Of a stretch of 64,000 bases of DNA, positions 10,765-64,000 are shown piece after piece. The position numbers and the translations under genes are program-made. The stretch is taken from the sequence record OQ873415.1. One strand, 5' to 3'. This DNA comes from Escherichia phage PECP20. The notes beneath the pieces are model-generated. The model saw nothing but the letters and a program-made list of their open reading frames with translations, was not told the DNA's origin and searched no databases. The first letter of the stretch is position 1. The number at the start of each line of letters is the position of its first letter.

Positions 10765-10943
10765 TCACATAATCTCGTTAACATACATTTGCAATTCGGT
10801 GTGGGCGTCGGCCATCTTTTTCATAGCTCTGTTAATGTCGATGTCTCCATCTTCGCAACCATGAGCATTTTCCCAATCAGATACCGCATTAGCGTACTCT
10901 TCAATCAAAAACATCAACTTAGAAATCTTTTCTTTACGTGTCA
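10765..10943 (-). CDS. hypothetical protein, about 59 aa
   Basis: ORF track ORF truncated to MTRKEKISKL... because the early promoter at 10962-11001 lies inside the longer ORF; RBS GGAG present. Confidence 0.45.
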
Positions 10944-10961
10944 TAACGTTCTCCTCTAGTA

Positions 10962-11001
10962 AGTAAGGACTACTATAACACATCTCAAGGAGAAGTAAAC
11001 T
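10962..11001 (-). promoter_or_regulatory. early promoter cassette
   Basis: Minus strand GTTTAC-TTCTCCTTGAGATGTGT-TATAGT; TTCTCCT complementary to downstream RBS AGGAGAA. Confidence 0.55.
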
Positions 11002-11011
11002 GTTAAATACC

Positions 11012-11043
11012 AAAAAGCCCCAACCATAAGGAAGGGGCTAGTA
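11012..11043 (-). terminator. rho-independent terminator downstream of rI
   Basis: Minus strand AGCCCC...GGGGCU stem followed by UUUUU. Confidence 0.55.
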
Positions 11044-14137: not shown

Positions 14138-14596
14138 CTAGATTTTAATCACTGCTTTAGAAGCTTTTCCTGGTAGTCGTTTACTGTTAATAATAGCCAT
14201 TCTACATTGAAGAGTCTTCATTTTGAATGTTGGATTTTCGCGACAGACTGTAAGTCCTAACCAAAGATTTCCATCAGTTATTTCTAAACGGCCTGGGCGA
14301 TATTCGACACCTTCGACAAAATCTTCATCAACATCTGGACGTGCCGGCATTGATAAAAATTCTGCAACTTCTTTAACATGATTTTTTACTTTATGAAATA
14401 ATTCAAAAACGTAATTCTCATCTATTTCTCTCTGGATGGCGCGATCTAAGAGATGTTGAGAATACTTGATATGAAAGCCTGGTAGTCCAAAAGACTTTGC
14501 AGCATCTTTTATACCGGCATTTATTTTGCGGAACTCCGTTTCAAAGATTCGACGGAGTTTATTACGGCGGATAAAAACTTCCGAATTGATAGTCAT
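14138..14596 (-). CDS. regB: site-specific RNA endonuclease RegB
   Basis: 152 aa closely matching T4 RegB as recalled (MTINSEVFIRRNKLRR...RMAIINSKRLPGKASKAVIK). Confidence 0.9.
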   Translation of the reverse strand: MTINSEVFIRRNKLRRIFETEFRKINAGIKDAAKSFGLPGFHIKYSQHLLDRAIQREIDENYVFELFHKVKNHVKEVAEFLSMPARPDVDEDFVEGVEYRPGRLEITDGNLWLGLTVCRENPTFKMKTLQCRMAIINSKRLPGKASKAVIKI

Positions 14597-14611
14597 TTTG
14601 ATTTCTCCTCT

Positions 14612-14655
14612 AGTTGACAGGTCTATAGTAACACAACTAGAGGAGAAGTAAACTA
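14612..14655 (-). promoter_or_regulatory. early promoter cassette upstream of regB with 12-bp inverted repeat spanning the -10 and RBS
   Basis: Plus strand ctcctctagttg (14605-14616) and caactagaggag (14634-14645) are exact reverse complements; gtaaac at 14649-14654. Confidence 0.6.
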
Positions 14656-14952
14656 CTCTTTGAAAGGAATTAACTTTTTAACTGCTTTAGATACTTCGTC
14701 ACGAACCTGATGGAAGTTCTTGAGCTGTTCAAGGCGTTGTTCGTAATACGCAATCTCATCTTCTTCAAGACAATCGTCAGCGTCTTCTTTCAGATATGCC
14801 TTGTACTCATTAAAGAGGGCCCATAGGCGGTTCTCAAAGTCATCAAGGCTTTGAATTTTCTTGTGCTTCGGAACAAGGCCAAAAGGATTGCTTTCAGTTA
14901 TGCGTCTAGATGCTTCATAATGAGTTCCAAAGCCTGATAGGATTTGAGCCAT
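14653..14952 (-). CDS. hypothetical protein, 99 aa
   Basis: ORF track. Confidence 0.6.
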
Positions 14953-17154: not shown

Positions 17155-17568
17155 TTAGTAAATTGATTTACCATAGTATTTGTACCAAGTCGGACGTTGA
17201 GCAATTTTTTCATCTAAGCGTGCTTGACTTATCGCAATGGACACTTCGGACGGGACATAATTATTACGAAATTCGGCAGGAATGTCGGAAATATCCTGGA
17301 CTGTCGTGTCCTTGATTTTGAAACCACGTTTCAAACATTCAGCGATTAGCTCGATTTGTCGTAAACGTAAAAATTCAAGTTTGTCGTAAAAGAATGTTAC
17401 GTGACCTGTGCCTAAGATAAATGTTGGAGAGATTTTAAAATCCTTTACACGTTTACCGTTTTGAACATGTTTACGGACTGCACCAAATACGCGTGGTAAT
17501 TCACGATACTCAGCCATAAGATGTTGGTCGGACAGTTCAGAAACAAGTGTTAAATTGATACGAGTCAT
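17155..17568 (-). CDS. denV: endonuclease V, pyrimidine dimer DNA glycosylase
   Basis: Start at [12 protein letters not shown]...; about 138 aa, near-identical to T4 DenV as recalled. Confidence 0.92.
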
Positions 17569-17589
17569 AATTTCCTCCAAGTAGTTGAT

Positions 17590-17626
17590 GAATGTATAGT
17601 ATCAAAACCCTTGGAGGAAGTAAACA
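17590..17626 (-). promoter_or_regulatory. early promoter cassette upstream of denV with 10-bp inverted repeat
   Basis: Plus strand ttcctccaag (17572-17581) and cttggaggaa (17610-17619) flank TATAGT; gtaaac at 17620-17625. Confidence 0.6.
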
Positions 17627-17908
17627 CTATTTTTCTGAAGCGCCTGAAATATATTTTTCAAGACGTTGTTTCATCAGCGAGCCGTTCTTAGCGATTTCTT
17701 CTGGTTTATCGCACATACGCAACAAGGCTTCAAGCTTAGCGATATCGCTGGTACGTTCAAATTTGCGAGTATCTATCTTACTAGCAAGTTCAGAAATACG
17801 TGCTAATAGACTTTCAGCTTCAACCAAAGCTGCACCTAGCTTAGTTGCAAATGTGTCAGTAGCTTCGTTAAGAATAGATTCTGATAAAAATTCACTATAT
17901 GTTTTCAT
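17627..17908 (-). CDS. internal-protein-like (capsid-targeted) protein, about 93 aa
   Basis: Start set at [10 protein letters not shown] leader; lies between denV and e as ipII/ipIII do in T4. Confidence 0.6.
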
Positions 17909-18393
17909 ATATACGCTTTCCAAGTTCCTGTTTTAAATGTTGAGATTACGCGTTTCGCGCGATTAGGTGTCTGACGATACCATTTAGATTGAGCTAGATT
18001 TACTGCCGCTTCATCCCAACGTTTCTGTTTAAGCATACGAAGAGAATTAGTAAAACCGGCGACTCCTGCTACACCCATTTGGAAGACCATATTGACCAAT
18101 GCACACCGACGAACTGCATCTAAAGAATCATATACCGGTTTAAGTTTAGCATTACCCAAGATTCCGCGAACGGCTTTATCGACGTCTTCATTAAATAGCT
18201 TTTCAGCCTCATCAAGGGTAATTGTACCGTTGCATTTACGACCGATCATTCTGTCAAGTTCAGCTTTAGCTACGGCTAAAGACTGGTTCTTTGTTACCAA
18301 GTGGCCTATGCCAATCGTCCAAAAGCCTTCAGTGTCTTTGTATAAAGTCAGTCTAAGACCTTCGTCATTACGAAGCATTTCAAATATATTCAT
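17905..18393 (-). CDS. e: lysozyme (endolysin), T4 e type
   Basis: [32 protein letters not shown]... near-identical to T4 lysozyme as recalled; catalytic E11 and D20 conserved. Confidence 0.95.
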
Positions 18394-18428
18394 AATACCT
18401 CCCACGTTTATAGGAGGTATTTATTACT
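18394..18428 (-). promoter_or_regulatory. RBS-sequestering hairpin with embedded late-promoter-like sequence upstream of lysozyme gene e
   Basis: mRNA sense AUACCUCC-UAUAAACGUG-GGAGGUAU then AUG; arms pair the Shine-Dalgarno; AATAAATA just upstream. Confidence 0.6.
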
Positions 18429-18886
18429 TATAGGATGGTAGTGAGCACCTTATATAATGATTTGCCCATTACATATTCCCATTGAGAAGGTTTAATTAAA
18501 GCGAATGCATCAAATTCAGGAATCTGTCGTCCGTCTGGGAATGTATGATAGGAATTACAAACACTGTTTCTGAATTGCTCGTGCTCTACAGGGATGGTAT
18601 ATAGGAACAGATGAATATTCTTATTATCTGAGTAATGATGTTCACCTAGGTCTTTCAGGAAGACAGGGTCATATTGTGTAAACCCAGTTTCTTCTTCGCA
18701 TTCACGAATAGCGGCTTCAATAGGAGATTCGCCAGGTTCGACATGGTCTTTAGGAATATCCCACCGATGAGCTAAAGAACCTTTAGGACGAGAACCAGTT
18801 ACACGACCCATGAATAACTCTTTATCTTTTGTCATGAAGATAATACCGGCTGATAGTTCTTTCACTTTATTTTTCTTACTCATCAT
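18428..18886 (-). CDS. nudE: Nudix hydrolase NudE
   Basis: 152 aa with Nudix box GHVEPGESPIEAAIRECEEETG. Confidence 0.85.
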   Translation of the reverse strand: MMSKKNKVKELSAGIIFMTKDKELFMGRVTGSRPKGSLAHRWDIPKDHVEPGESPIEAAIRECEEETGFTQYDPVFLKDLGEHHYSDNKNIHLFLYTIPVEHEQFRNSVCNSYHTFPDGRQIPEFDAFALIKPSQWEYVMGKSLYKVLTTIL

Positions 18887-27237: not shown

Positions 27238-27314
27238 TGGTCGAGACAGAAGGATTCTAACCTTCAACCTACGGATTAGAAGTCCGTTGCTCCATACAAT
27301 TGAGCTATGCCTCG
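27238..27314 (-). tRNA. tRNA-Arg (anticodon UCU)
   Basis: Hand-folded cloverleaf: acceptor CGAGGCA/TGTCTCG, D-stem GCTC/GAGC, anticodon stem ACGGA/TCCGT with loop CTTCTAA, T-arm GAAGG-TTAGAAT-CCTTC, encoded CCA. Confidence 0.75.
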
Positions 27315-27320
27315 AATATA

Positions 27321-27394
27321 TGGCCCAGACCAGATTCGAACTGGTAACCTTTCCCTTATGAGGGGACTGCTGCTAACCATTGAGCTACAGGGCC
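27321..27394 (-). tRNA. tRNA with CAU anticodon (Ile or Met type)
   Basis: Hand-folded: acceptor GGCCCTG/CTGGGCC (one mismatch), anticodon loop CTCATAA, T-arm ACCAG-TTCGAAT-CTGGT, CCA encoded; D-arm irregular. Confidence 0.55.
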
Positions 27395-29211: not shown

Positions 29212-29254
29212 TTGATAGGATGATAGTAACACACCATCATCTTTATGTAAACTG
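29212..29254 (-). promoter_or_regulatory. early promoter cassette upstream of ipI-like gene
   Basis: Plus strand gataggatgatagtaacacaccatcatctttatgtaaac. Confidence 0.55.
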
Positions 29255-35077: not shown

Positions 35078-35593
35078 ATGGCACAAATACTTCCTTTAAA
35101 TACCGACTTAGGAGAAGACATGGAAGGGGCGTCTATTGACGTCCTTTTTACTCCGCAGCTAGAAACGTCCGAAACTTTAGTGTCAATAAATATAACAGAT
35201 TATGAACCGACACAAGGCATTACGGTAGATGGTAATCGTTTATATGGAACATATGAAAGTGTGTTTAGCTTTTCTTCGGATGCATTGAAATATCGATTAA
35301 ATGATGATTTTAAAACTGCATCTTCATGGGATGATTTACCGAAAGATGAATCCGCACAGTTATATTTGTGGAGAGCTCCTCAGAATCTTCGTAAAGTGTT
35401 TAGTTATACGGTTGAAATGATTTATAACTACCAAGAAGAAAGTTCATCAGGCGGCTCAAGAAGTGACTCTAGTACAGAACCTCCGCCAGCTCCGGTACAA
35501 AAAACTCTTACTAAGGTTTATACAAAAACTATAGTAGGAAATTGGAGCAAATGGGCCCAACAATTACGAAACTATGTTTATGCGAGGTCATAA
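35078..35593 (+). CDS. 5.1: gp5.1 hypothetical protein
   Basis: 171 aa at the T4 5.1 position. Confidence 0.7.
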
Positions 35594-45359: not shown

Positions 45360-46906
45360 GTAACAATACATATCAACACGTTTCGAATGAATCGGTATAT
45401 GTTGAATTTGACCCTGCAGGGTCAAATTTTGATAGTTCAATAACCAATGTCCAGGCAGCCTTAGCCTCAATTAGCGCATATGGTGTTAAAGGTGTTCCGG
45501 ACGCAAGCGAAGCAGAAAAAGGTGTAATTCAATTAGCGACAGAACAAGAAGTTCTTGATGGATTTAATAGTACTAAAGCCGTTACACCCGCCACATTAAA
45601 TGCAAGACTTCAGTATCCGAACGCGTCAGAAACACAATACGGTGTAACTAAATATGCAACACAAGAGGAAGCCATTGCCGGCACTTTAGACACTGTTTCT
45701 ATTACTCCACTTAAATTAAACCAAACTATTGATAACACGTTCTCTACTCGTTATTCCACCGAAACAACTAATGGTGTTATTAAAATTGCAACTCAAACCG
45801 CTGCACTTGCCGGGTCTGATGATACCACGGCAATGACACCGCTTAAAACTCAGCAATTAGCAATAAAATTAATTTCTCAAATAGCTCCTAATAACGACCC
45901 GGCTTCAGAATCTATTACCGGTGTTGTGCGTTTAGCTACGGTGGCTCAAACACGTCAAGGAACTCTTCGCGAAGGATATGCAATTTCCCCATACACCTTT
46001 ATGAATTCTGTTGCAACACAAGAATATAAAGGTGTTATACGTCTAGGAACACAAGCGGAAATTAATAGTAATTTAGGAGATGTTGCTGTAACAGGTGAAA
46101 CGCTAAATGGTAGAGGAGCTACCGGTTCTATGCGTGGAGTCGTAAAATTAACGACGCAGGCCGGTGTTGCACCCGAAGGCGATAACTCTGGAGCATTAGC
46201 ATGGAACGCGGATGTAATTAATACACGCGGTGGGCAAACTATTAATGGTTCTTTAAATTTAGCCCATCTCACAGCAAATGGAATTTGGTCACGTGGCGGA
46301 ATGTGGAAAAACGGTGACCAGCCGGTTGCAACAGAGCGATATGCATCTGAACGTGTTCCTGTTGGAACAATTCAAATGTTCGCAGGTGATAGCGCTCCTC
46401 CAGGTTGGGTTTTATGTCATGGCGGGACCGTTTCTGGGAACCAATTTCCGGACTATCGAAATGTGGTTGGAACGAGATTTGGTGGTGATTGGAATAATCC
46501 TGGAATTCCAGACATGCGCGGTCTTTTTGTTAGAGGAGCTGGTACAGGCAGCCATATTTTAAATAATCGCGGTCAAGACGGCTATGGAAAGGATAGATTA
46601 GGTGTAGGATGTGACGGTATGCATGTTGGTGGTGTCCAAGCACAGCAAATGTCATATCATAAACACGCTGGTGGATGGGGCGAATATCAACGTCATGAGG
46701 CACCATTCGGAGCATCCGTATATCAAGGTTATTTGGGTACTAGAAAATACGCTGATTGGGATAACGCATCATATTTCACAAATGACGGCTTCGAATTAGG
46801 TGGTCACCGCGACGCAACAGGCACTCTTAACCGTGAAGGACTTATCGGATATGAGACTCGTCCATGGAATATATCTTTAAATTATATTATTAAAGTCCAT
46901 TACTAA
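45356..46906 (+). CDS. 12: short tail fiber protein gp12
   Basis: 516 aa; repeated tail-fiber type N-terminal segments; synteny. Confidence 0.9.
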
Positions 46907-61344: not shown

Positions 61345-61612
61345 ATTTCTGTGCAATTTCGATGTAAGTTTTCAAAATATTTTGCCAATTAGGCATACCT
61401 TCTTGGACATATGCTGGAGAACCATCTTTGTTTTTGAATGATGCAAGTTTATCAGTGGCCCAATAGCCTTTAGCTCGAGCTTCAGAATCAACTTTCATCC
61501 ATACTTTGTTGAAGGCATTACCATTAACTTTTGCACCGTATTTTTCTACTAACTTAACTGCTTCAGCTTCCAGAACTTTTAAAGTATCTCGTAAGAAACG
61601 TGCTTTAGTCAT
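61343..61612 (-). CDS. hypothetical protein, 89 aa, opposite strand between genes 23 and 24
   Basis: ORF track; GAGGAG RBS; early-promoter cassette upstream on minus strand. Confidence 0.6.
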   Translation of the reverse strand: MTKARFLRDTLKVLEAEAVKLVEKYGAKVNGNAFNKVWMKVDSEARAKGYWATDKLASFKNKDGSPAYVQEGMPNWQNILKTYIEIAQK

Positions 61613-61631
61613 TTTGTTTACTCCTCTGTAG

Positions 61632-61673
61632 TTGATAAGTCTATAGTATCACATACCAAATACGTTGTAAACA
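61632..61673 (-). promoter_or_regulatory. early promoter cassette driving the antisense ORF between genes 23 and 24
   Basis: Plus strand gttgataagtctatagtatcacataccaaatacgttgtaaac. Confidence 0.55.
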
Positions 61674-61678
61674 ATCTT

Positions 61679-61686
61679 TATAAATA
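61679..61686 (+). promoter_or_regulatory. late promoter TATAAATA upstream of gene 24
   Basis: Exact TATAAATA about 25 nt before start. Confidence 0.65.
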
Positions 61687-61713: not shown

Positions 61714-62997
61714 ATGAGTAAAATCCAAAAATTATTGCGTGAATCTACAACGTCTACTAGCAACTCAATCGGTCGCCCAAATCTCGTTGCTTTGACTCGC
61801 GCTACGACTAAATTAATATATTCTGACATTGTAGCAACACAAAGAACTAATCAACCTGTTGCTGCTTTTTATGGTATTAAATATCTTAACCCAGACAACG
61901 AATTAACGTTTAAAACTGGTGCTACTTATGCAGGTGAAGCTGGATATGTAGACCGAGAAAAAATTACCGAGCTCACAGAAGAATCAAAAGTCACACTAAA
62001 TAAAGGCGATTTTTTCAAATATAATAATATCGTCTATAAAGTGCTAGAAGATACACCATTTGCAGATATTCAAGAAAGTGATCTAGAATTAGCTCTTCAG
62101 ATTGCAGTTGTTCATTTAAAGGTACGGTTATTTTCAGATGCAGCGGTGACAAGCAAATTTGAAAGCTCCGGTAGCGAAATTTCCGATGCAAGATTCCAAA
62201 TTAATAAATGGCAAACTTCAGTCAAATCTCGTAAACTTAAAACCGGTCTCACGGTTGAATTAGCGCAAGATTTGGAAGCGAATGGATTTGATGCCCCTAA
62301 CTTCTTAGAAGATTTGCTTGCTACTGAAATGGCTGATGAAATTAATAAAGATATTCTTCAGTCTTTAATTACGGTATCGAAACGTTATAAAGTTACTGGA
62401 ATTACTGACACCGGATTTATTGACTTGAGCTATGCATCCGCTCCAGAAGCAGGTCGTTCGTTATATCGAATGGTGTGTGAAATGGTATCACACATTCAAA
62501 AAGAGTCAACTTATACTGCGACGTTTTGTGTAGCTTCAGCTCGTGCAGCTGCTATTCTTGCTGCTTCAGGTTGGTTAAAACATAAACCAGAAGATGATAA
62601 GTATCTTTCACAAAATGCTTACGGGTTCTTAGCTAATGGTTTACCGCTTTATTGCGATACTAACAGTCCATTAGATTATGTGATCGTTGGCGTAGTAGAA
62701 AATATCGGTGAAAAAGAAATTGTTGGATCAATTTTCTATGCCCCGTATACAGAAGGTCTCGACTTAGATGACCCTGAACATGTTGGTGCATTTAAAGTTG
62801 TAGTTGATCCAGAAAGCTTGCAACCGTCTATTGGTTTATTGGTTAGATACGCTTTATCAGCAAATCCTTACACAGTAGCAAAAGACGAAAAAGAAGCGAG
62901 AATAATTGATGGCGGGGACATGGATAAAATGGCAGGACGTTCAGACTTGTCTGTTTTACTTGGTGTTAAATTGCCTAAAATTATTATAGATGAATGA
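61714..62997 (+). CDS. 24: capsid vertex protein gp24
   Basis: 427 aa; gp23-like fold segments; late promoter TATAAATA upstream. Confidence 0.93.
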   Translation: MSKIQKLLRESTTSTSNSIGRPNLVALTRATTKLIYSDIVATQRTNQPVAAFYGIKYLNPDNELTFKTGATYAGEAGYVDREKITELTEESKVTLNKGDFFKYNNIVYKVLEDTPFADIQESDLELALQIAVVHLKVRLFSDAAVTSKFESSGSEISDARFQINKWQTSVKSRKLKTGLTVELAQDLEANGFDAPNFLEDLLATEMADEINKDILQSLITVSKRYKVTGITDTGFIDLSYASAPEAGRSLYRMVCEMVSHIQKESTYTATFCVASARAAAILAASGWLKHKPEDDKYLSQNAYGFLANGLPLYCDTNSPLDYVIVGVVENIGEKEIVGSIFYAPYTEGLDLDDPEHVGAFKVVVDPESLQPSIGLLVRYALSANPYTVAKDEKEARIIDGGDMDKMAGRSDLSVLLGVKLPKIIIDE

Positions 62998-63029
62998 AAA
63001 AAGGGGACCTTTACGGTCCCCTTTTTTCA
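62996..63029. terminator. bidirectional rho-independent terminator between gene 24 and rnlB
   Basis: AAAAAAGGGGACC-UUUAC-GGUCCCCUUUUUU; A-run and U-run flank a 7-bp stem. Confidence 0.7.
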
Positions 63030-64000
63030 TTATGATACTAATTCAATCCATGCAGGACGCAGAACATCTTGCACCATTCGGACTAATTCTTTCTTAACAA
63101 GATTCGGATTATCAGATGATGTTAATACAATGCCTTCACGAGAAGTTTCTTCCAGAATATCTTGAACAGTCAATCCCATCACTTTGCCAAAATCTTTCGG
63201 AGTTACTGTCCCAATCTTAGAAATCACATTGTTAACACGATTTAATGTAACATAACAAGCTAGAACATCAAGCAAGTTTTTGTCAATTTCGGTTAATGGA
63301 ACCTGAGTTTTAATAGGCTTATCAGACTTTTTCTTTTCACTGAATTTAGAGTTCTTGCACTTAATCGCTACACGAGTACCGTTTGGCAGCCATTTAGGGA
63401 AACAAGGCTTCAGAACATAACCTTCTGCGGTATTATCACCAATAACATTAGCATCAAATACGCAATTATTTGCTTCTACAAGGTCTTCCGATGCCGTAGC
63501 GTTATAAGCGGCTAAGACGGAATCAAGGTCGTTTTGAATCGTGATAAGAGCATCAAATGTTCCACGTCCAAGCATTGGTGCCATTTTAAAACCAAACGTA
63601 TTACAGAAATCTTGCATTTCGTAATCACTCATGTAATAAGTATCACCGCTTTCCGTGTTTATGATGATATCGAATACATAGAAATCTTTTTCACCGTAGT
63701 CAACACCTTTCTGAATTCCACCACCAGCGAATTCACCAAAGACTTGATATGTCACCGGCACTGAAGTTGAAATACTGTCCATGACTTCTTGAACACCTTT
63801 AATAGCCTTATCATACTTCTTGAGTACGATTTCATAACCATAAAAATCTTCTGCTGGAAGAATAGGGCCTGTGCGCTTGGCGCATGTGACGTTGTCACGT
63901 TCAATTATTAACGAGAAGTTGGTCCCATGGATTTTCTCACGTGCTACCCAAACACCAGTAGTCAAACCATTAGTGTAGAGTTTTTCAATAAACTTAGAGT
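63030..64000 (-). CDS. rnlB: RNA ligase 2, C-terminal part; gene start lies beyond the window end
   Basis: Translation continues in frame to the window edge (...[35 protein letters not shown]...), matching T4 Rnl2 as recalled, including the KIHG ligase motif. Confidence 0.85.

Follow-up and report, generated by a model that had tools for sequence, protein, structure and literature searches.

Early promoters of regB and denV in a T4-like phage lie inside hairpins that probably confine translation to the genes' own transcripts

Why should an early promoter be built into an inverted repeat whose second arm holds the ribosome binding site for the gene that it serves? This question is raised by the regB locus of Escherichia phage PECP20 (OQ873415.1), which was analysed within a window of 64,000 nucleotides (nt), the whole stretch of DNA under study, to whose positions the coordinates refer. 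The genes of T4 are arranged head to tail and terminators are few, and most genes are carried on several overlapping transcripts of different times. How the phage keeps its protein schedule is only partly understood, and the answer generally accepted is one for late genes, lysozyme among them. At regB and at a second early gene, denV, the bases right behind the −35 hexamer (GTTTAC) are exactly complementary to the gene's own Shine–Dalgarno (SD) region. We propose, with a probability of roughly 0.6, that the resulting hairpins are promoter-coupled translational insulators, which would restrict translation of both genes to their own early transcripts; the start sites, the existence and amount of read-through RNA and the translational effect are inferred.

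The 6-kb piece around regB and denV shares 97-99% identity with many Escherichia Tequatrovirus (T4-like) genomes in a sequence search, and the relatives' annotated genes in the matching piece include regB, denV, nudE and lysozyme. In the window, regB (14138..14596, 152 amino acids; Pfam REGB_T4, E = 4e-69) and denV (17155..17568, 137 amino acids; Pfam Pyr_excise) are both on the minus strand, as are the lysozyme gene e (17905-18393, assigned by Pfam) and a DUF7438 gene considered below. The coding strand at regB reads, in order, GTTTAC, UUCUCCUCUAGUUG, TGT, TACTAT, agacct, G (+1), uc, CAACUAGAGGAGAA, aucaaa and AUG. The −35 hexamer (14648..14653) is followed at once by the 5′ arm, or anti-SD, UUCUCCUCUAGUUG (14634..14647), which fills the −35/−10 spacer; the −10 hexamer TACTAT (14625..14630), preceded by an extended −10 TGT, lies in the hairpin loop; and the 3′ arm CAACUAGAGGAGAA (14603..14616) contains the SD GGAG (plus strand 14605-14608) ahead of the start codon AUG (14596..14594). 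Judged from sigma-70 spacing, transcription is predicted to start at the G at 14618, the seventh base past the −10 and 2 nt upstream of the 3′ arm. A sequence-only reading of the window had claimed an exact 12-nt repeat at this place, flanking the −10 and with GGAG in its second arm, and the claim is accurate throughout: plus-strand ctcctctagttg (14605-14616) is the exact reverse complement of caactagaggag (14634-14645), and the helix amounts to 14 base pairs (bp) once the flanking bases are counted (14603-14616 / 14634-14647).

The same layout had been claimed for denV, again with the right coordinates, and ttcctccaag (17572-17581) is exactly complementary to cttggaggaa (17610-17619), giving a 10-bp helix. 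Here the −35 hexamer GTTTAC (17620..17625) is followed by the 5′ arm UUCCUCCAAG (17610..17619) in the promoter spacer, the −10 hexamer TACTAT (17596..17601), an A at 17589 as the start predicted from the −10 geometry, 7 nt upstream of the 3′ arm, then the 3′ arm CUUGGAGGAA (17572..17581) with the SD GGAGG, and the AUG (17568..17566). Both promoters are thus of the early type GTTTAC-N17/18-TACTAT, with the −10 and the predicted start between the arms, and in both the 5′ arm is wholly upstream of the start site predicted from −35/−10 geometry. Neither site contains the late-promoter motif TATAAATA, and no Rfam family was found at either of them. Upstream genes reach up to the promoters: the TAG stop (14655..14653) of a 99-residue open reading frame (ORF) shares the first base of the regB −35, and the stop codon of an internal-protein-like ORF ends 1 nt ahead of the denV −35.

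In a repeat search, the regB and denV repeats were among the longest short-range inverted repeats in the window. Promoter-spanning RNAs are predicted to fold into the proposed hairpins at −22.7 kcal/mol for regB (z = −3.48 versus shuffles) and −19.8 kcal/mol for denV (z = −3.86), on a par with the hairpin of gene e (z = −3.84), the positive control, in which AAUACCUCCUAU/GUGGGAGGUAUU (18394..18421 within the region 18391-18430, minus strand) masks the SD ahead of the AUG at 18393. Shuffling of the spacers gave p = 0.004 for regB, p = 0.012 for denV and p = 0.10 for a third site near 11000. The cost of opening the SD was computed both for RNAs starting 0-150 nt upstream of the −35 and for RNA from the predicted own start. 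In the window it was 12.8-14.6 kcal/mol on read-through RNA versus 1.6 from the own start for regB, and 12.3-12.6 versus 1.95 for denV; the corresponding values in T4 were 12.1-12.6 versus 3.05 (regB) and 10.2-12.0 versus 2.55 (denV). When 98 SD-bearing window ORFs were scanned for this difference, regB ranked first (11.3 kcal/mol) and denV second (10.0 kcal/mol), with a median of 0.05 and a 95th percentile of 4.4 kcal/mol. The third rank was taken by gene 49, a published case of a late-promoter hairpin, and therefore the scan recovers known biology; this further positive control occupies 734-773 on the minus strand, with TATAAATA at 766-773, the helix ACCCUUA/UAAGGGU and the AUG at 736. An ORF at 35551 (plus strand), also high in the scan, was rejected as it looks like an internal ATG and not a gene start.

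The sequence-only reading had held that read-through RNA would fold over the ribosome binding site and that RNA from the embedded promoter would lack the anti-SD arm, and it had suggested folding the two kinds of 5′ end as a check. Run here, this comparison gave opening costs of 12-14 versus 1.6-2 kcal/mol, so the SD of regB and denV is predicted to be buried in the one and open in the other. The analogy drawn with gene e is also apt; the gene e and gene 49 hairpins sit in the same window and behave alike in the scan. Every computable part of the promoter-in-hairpin reading is supported for regB and denV.

Relatives provide a second line of evidence. Among 16 regB loci from IMG/VR together with that of T4, with RegB identities from 97% to 40%, the spacer/SD helix is kept with different stems, at RegB identities from 97% down to 56%, in all but the most distant. 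TTCTCCTCTAGTTG pairs with CAACTAGAGGAGAA in the window type, TTTTCCTCTTGACTG with CAGTTAAGAGGAGAA in the T4 type (two G.U pairs), TTTCTCCTCTTTATG with CATAAAGAGGAGAAA in L010 and TCTCCTGTAAG with CTTACAGGAGA in L013 and L016, and L014 and L015 combine a short anti-SD helix with an inner GGGCCAT/ATGGCCC stem; the stems of these loci include CTAGTTG/CAACTAG, CTTGACTG/CAGTTAAG, CTTTATG/CATAAAG and TGTAAG/CTTACA. The most distant locus (L017) has no anti-SD, and an intrinsic terminator stands directly before its promoter. For denV, about 26 of the 33 distinct upstream regions from T4-like contigs form a helix that covers the SD and has its 5′ arm upstream of the predicted start. In one design (A) the arm lies in the spacer, with four unrelated stems (TTCCTCCAAG, TCTCCTGTAG, CTCCGTTTG and TCTCCTGTG); in another (B) it overlaps the −10 hexamer plus the bases that follow, its partner being the SD and often the AUG too, as in TATGATGTCTTCC/GGAGGACATCATG and ATGTCCTCCTA/TAGGAGGACAT; and in a third (C), found in four phages of about 350 kb (L040, L042, L044 and L048), an intrinsic terminator overlaps the −35, its stem containing the −35 TTGAC (e.g., AAAGGGTTGACTTCGGTCAGCCCTTTTT). 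The terminator of these four phages appears to correspond to the terminator-type promoter-early stem-loop cassette (PeSL, see below) reported for the nt-1/KVP40 pair. Since three different designs give the same predicted outcome, we argue that the outcome itself is what selection keeps.

Covariation was assessed in an alignment (A2) built from 16 sequences of the spacer type, with the CC/GG core as anchor; it replaced an ordinary MAFFT alignment (A1) of the entire promoter regions, which set the helices out of register. In A2, 83% of the cells were paired versus 68.6% in shuffled data, and changes occurred on both sides in 10 of the 14 pairs. The covariation score was 0.418 versus 0.152 for shuffles (0/500 reached 0.418), and it fell to 0.045-0.117 when the partner was slid by 1-3 columns. 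These comparisons support the view that the regB and denV pairing has been kept by compensatory change across diverged relatives.

The arms also appear to be matched to their own genes. In a promoter swap, the upstream part of each early promoter was joined to the leader of every other early gene; a gain of at least 7.5 kcal/mol in SD opening cost was seen in 6 of the 25 real pairs in T4 versus 0.7% of 600 chimeras (permutation p = 2e-4), and in 2 of the 18 real pairs in the window versus 1.0% of chimeras (p = 0.02). The swap abolishes the effect; therefore, the arms are matched to their own genes rather than being generic C/T-rich spacers. The T4 survey covered three segments, about 114 kb of 169 kb, with a threshold of at least 5 kcal/mol for the opening difference; the T4 GenBank record AF158101 contains no promoter features. 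Eight of 29 early promoter-gene pairs reached this threshold, namely modB (design B, 10.8 kcal/mol), the ndd.4 region (10.6), 30.8 (9.4), regB (9.3), alt.-3 (8.4), denV (7.8), alc (6.0, with nearly the cassette of alt.-3) and motB.2 (5.1). Several of these products are assigned by the T4 record to roles in host or phage RNA and transcription, ModB as an ADP-ribosylase, Alc as an inhibitor of host transcription and RegB as an RNA endonuclease. The sequence of a primer hints that the modB RNA starts past the 5′ arm. In the window, only regB and denV are strong among the early promoters. Tentatively, and with clearly less confidence than for regB and denV themselves, these cases may be read as a general, repeatedly re-evolved device for own-promoter-only translation at about a quarter of T4-type early genes, including regB, modB and alc, in which the anti-SD lies in the spacer or in the −10 and the following bases, or a terminator is used instead. 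As a separate observation, the T4 genes alt.-3 (ATG 123032) and alc (ATG ~136278), at distant loci, have an almost identical early promoter cassette, GTTTACAAGTCCCTCGTGTTGTGTTATAGTAGTCTTACT(A/G)ACATAACATGAGGA, in which the spacer UCCCUC can pair with the SD.

In the mechanism that we propose, RNA from the own promoter would begin about 7 nt past the −10, downstream of the anti-SD, so that a leader of about 22 nt would leave the SD free and the gene would be translated. On the other hand, a polymerase coming from upstream would transcribe both arms, and a hairpin of −20 to −23 kcal/mol would bury the SD, leaving the cistron silent on long upstream-initiated RNAs. Incoming RNAs would include early transcripts from the same unterminated unit and, later, those from the late promoters of gene e and of the internal-protein gene. 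Gene e and its late promoters are about 0.8 kb upstream of denV and oriented the same way, and no intrinsic terminator was found on the minus strand between the denV promoter (17625) and regB (14653). Because the upstream ORFs end at the −35, no terminator intervenes and gene e is upstream, upstream transcription should reach regB and denV. Synthesis of RegB and DenV would then track only the brief firing of their own early promoters. This fits the published tight limit on RegB, whose promoter is off at 2-3 min and which cuts its own SD (PMC3014915). For SDs of the GGAG type, the helix would also hide the RegB cleavage site on long RNAs, because secondary structure in the RNA inhibits RegB (PMC3014915); promoter-initiated denV RNA has been treated as unstructured around its GGAG (PMC1702504).

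Several points weigh against this interpretation. The sequence-only reading had named a third example at 10945-10990 and concluded that the logic is reused at several early genes, which stands for regB and denV and is weak at this third site (minus strand). Its arms are present, at 10949-10956 and 10987-10994, a slightly wider range than had been given. The −35 GTTTAC (11000..10995) and the anti-SD UUCUCCUU (10994..10987) together span 10987..11000, and the 3′ arm GAGGAGAA (10949..10956) contains the SD of the DUF7438 gene (10765-10944, 59 amino acids, from Pfam). The arms form 7 Watson-Crick pairs and one G.U pair (8 bp). The fold of lowest energy has the SD paired to GUCCUU, close to the −10, and not to the spacer arm; z is −1.23 (22 of 200 shuffles fold as well), and the opening difference is 3-4 kcal/mol. 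Three close relatives show a perfect 8-bp pairing without covariation. An intrinsic terminator, AGCCCC...GGGGCU followed by UUUUU (11012..11039), also stands directly upstream of the promoter and would already hold down read-through there. We do not find this site convincing.

Other early promoters add to these doubts. Another 7-8 of the window's 19 early promoters carry inverted repeats of 8-13 bp that flank the −10 and stop short of the SD (minus strand, −35 at 29252, 28897, 24973, 22215, 20920, 20651, 10551 and 6386), for instance GATAGGACTAT gttata ATAGTCCTATC and TTGGTAGGACTAT...GTAGTCCTACCAA. Their 3′ arms run from the end of the −10 to about +5 without the SD, and they resemble stem-loops of the PeSL type. 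Since most repeat-bearing promoters spare the SD, the hairpins must have at least one other role, and SD overlap by early-promoter hairpins could be secondary. A ribosome ending at the upstream stop, 5 nt before the helix, could open its first pairs and bring about some coupled initiation. Limiting DenV answers no obvious need, unlike limiting RegB. As for the covariation, A2 took in only sequences already chosen for an anti-SD in the spacer, and the stem counts of G.U versus A.C mismatches (8 versus 4) are too few to prove selection on the sense RNA.

The regB/denV-type cassettes are found where shuffled gene modules meet, in variable regions. In three related loci (L002-L004), the window's regB promoter/hairpin cassette, together with a RegB of 97% identity, is preceded by another gene and another sequence than at 14653-14700 of the window, and a mosaic junction therefore falls at the −35. 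The RegB of the window is only 78% identical to T4-type RegB, though the phages share one genus. In L035 (IMG/VR 3300010279_000005), the end of gene e is joined directly to denV by a promoter cassette of the T4 ipIII type, and its internal-protein genes appear to have been lost via promoter-to-promoter recombination. This cassette, 110 nt upstream of denV, is nearly identical to that before T4 ipIII (compare L001 10460-10520). Between e and denV, the window has one internal-protein-like ORF (17627-17908) and T4 has ipIII and ipII.

Such junctions are what would be expected if the hairpins were ordinary PeSL cassettes, in which the stem-loop mainly attenuates or terminates incoming transcription and gives homology for recombination, and the SD overlap is a by-product of very short leaders. 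Reports of PeSLs in T4-type phages, among them the T4/PST pair, place the stem-loops between the −35 and −10 or overlapping them (PMC2839356, PMC4122927), and the SD-sparing hairpins at 7-8 of the window's 19 early promoters look like the same kind. Nevertheless, we consider this account unlikely for regB and denV. Their helices have neither a U-tract, the following bases being AAAUCAAAAUG (regB) and AUUAUG (denV), nor a match in the terminator scan, and an intrinsic terminator at these helices was rejected because the U-tract is missing. The SD stays in the helix through turnover of the stem and relocation of the 5′ arm, the swap control shows each 5′ arm to be fitted to its own SD region, and the SD is shown in the PeSL papers as an element apart, not as an arm of the stem. 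An RNA-protecting role, which we hold to be distinctly unlikely, would have the helix hide the intergenic GGAG from RegB on polycistronic RNAs, so that downstream genes outlast the early RegB wave, or serve as a 3′ stabiliser of the upstream message, with translational silence as a side effect. The GGAG of SDs is a cutting site for RegB, secondary structure readily blocks the enzyme, middle and late transcripts largely resist it for reasons that are only partly explained (PMC3014915, PMC1702504), and the SD is GGAG or GGAU in several of the T4 cases. The denV GGAG, however, is already RegB-resistant through its 3′ context (PMC1702504), yet the helix is kept. SDs of the GGAGG and AAGGA kinds are covered by helices as well, and so is the AUG itself where the arm overlaps the −10; masking of translation fits this better than RNA protection does, though protection from RegB may come in as a further effect.

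In a classical mechanism of translational coupling, upstream ribosomes open a helix that masks the SD, and the upstream stops at regB and denV lie 5-6 nt before the helix. It is nonetheless improbable that the SD on read-through RNA is there to be opened only by a ribosome finishing the upstream ORF, which would tie downstream translation to upstream translation instead of blocking it: judging from footprint sizes, only the first 2-4 of the 10-14 bp would come within reach of a ribosome that terminates there, with the GG of the SD still paired, and many relatives differ in the upstream gene and its distance but keep the helix. That the repeats act as DNA, whether as the operator of a protein shutting off early promoters or as a cruciform with an influence on promoter activity, seems highly improbable. 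Inverted repeats centred on the −10 are typical of operators. How T4 early promoters are shut off is only partly understood (PMC3014915). The arms of different promoters, however, share no sequence save the anti-SD core, and an operator for a common DNA-binding protein was rejected on this ground; they covary rather than being conserved, one arm is always the SD, and loops of 17-28 nt are large for a cruciform. Promoter-coupled masking of translation thus remains the reading that we prefer.

Some further features of the window were recorded. At 61612-61680 (minus strand), an early promoter has the −35 hexamer itself as 5′ arm: TTGTTTAC pairs with GTAAACAA, right after the SD and touching the AUG of an 89-residue ORF. 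The SD opening difference is 4.6 kcal/mol, and the 5′ arm may here have a fourth kind of position. The Rfam scan of the window found two tRNA genes (27241-27394, minus strand), and nothing else reached the gathering score. A perfect 24-bp palindrome, AATTTGACCCTG/CAGGGTCAAATT, lies at 45405-45428 in the late-gene region. At 62993-63031, a hairpin of 17 perfect bp, flanked on either side by A/T runs (AATGAAAAAAGGGGACC...GGTCCCCTTTTTTCATT), is probably a two-way terminator.

Hairpins that sequester the SD and contain an internal late promoter are known from the T4 late genes e, soc, 49, I-TevI/II/III and segB and from Aeh1 mobE (PMC3014915, PMC2988022), and according to one review all genes with SD-sequestering hairpins and an internal promoter are late. 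The predicted behaviour of the regB and denV hairpins is like theirs: a helix would bury the SD or AUG on long upstream RNAs, and a promoter in or just before the helix would give a shorter RNA without the 5′ arm, which would be translated. They differ in that the embedded promoter is a sigma-70 early promoter rather than a gp55 TATAAATA late promoter, and in that the 5′ arm lies inside the −35/−10 spacer or over the −10. The predicted timing mirrors that of gene e, regB and denV being translated only early and silent on later read-through, and gene e being late-only. [quoted passage not shown] In descriptions of PeSLs, however, the stem-loop terminates or attenuates transcription and serves as a substrate for recombination, and the SD is outside the stem, whereas the 3′ arm at regB and denV is the SD and no U-tract follows.

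A third relative of this layout comes from a mobile element. Davis, Simons and Kleckner 1985 (Cell 43:379) reportedly found that transcripts entering IS10/Tn10 from outside carry a segment that pairs with the transposase ribosome binding site and is lacking from transcripts of the element's own promoter. In PMC13181058, this work is cited for sequestered translation signals. As in IS10, the 5′ arms of regB and denV lie upstream of the genes' own predicted starts and pair with their own ribosome binding sites. Unlike IS10, in which a mobile element guards its transposase against chance host transcription, regB and denV are phage genes with no transposable element, and the virus appears to reuse the layout repeatedly within one long programmed transcription unit. 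Full-text literature searches gave no description of an anti-SD built into early-promoter spacers, and older T4 works (the 1994 T4 book; Sanson and Uzan 1993) may mention single cases. The regB and denV hairpins are best filed as an early-gene variant of the gene e and IS10 logic and as a functional subtype of PeSL cassettes.

If early promoters carry their own anti-SD, there would be a simple rule, readable from sequence, for which early proteins are made only in a pulse, and this would bear on how RegB tells early from later transcripts. It would add a possible function to promoter stem-loop cassettes, which have so far been discussed mainly as terminators or recombination sites, and the compact layout of about 60 bp could serve as an insulator part in synthetic operons. 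Should the device prove general in T4-type phages, it would give a real immediate-early pulse of protein synthesis despite few terminators, and it would explain how RegB cuts early transcripts and spares the same GGAG on middle and late ones at those sites.

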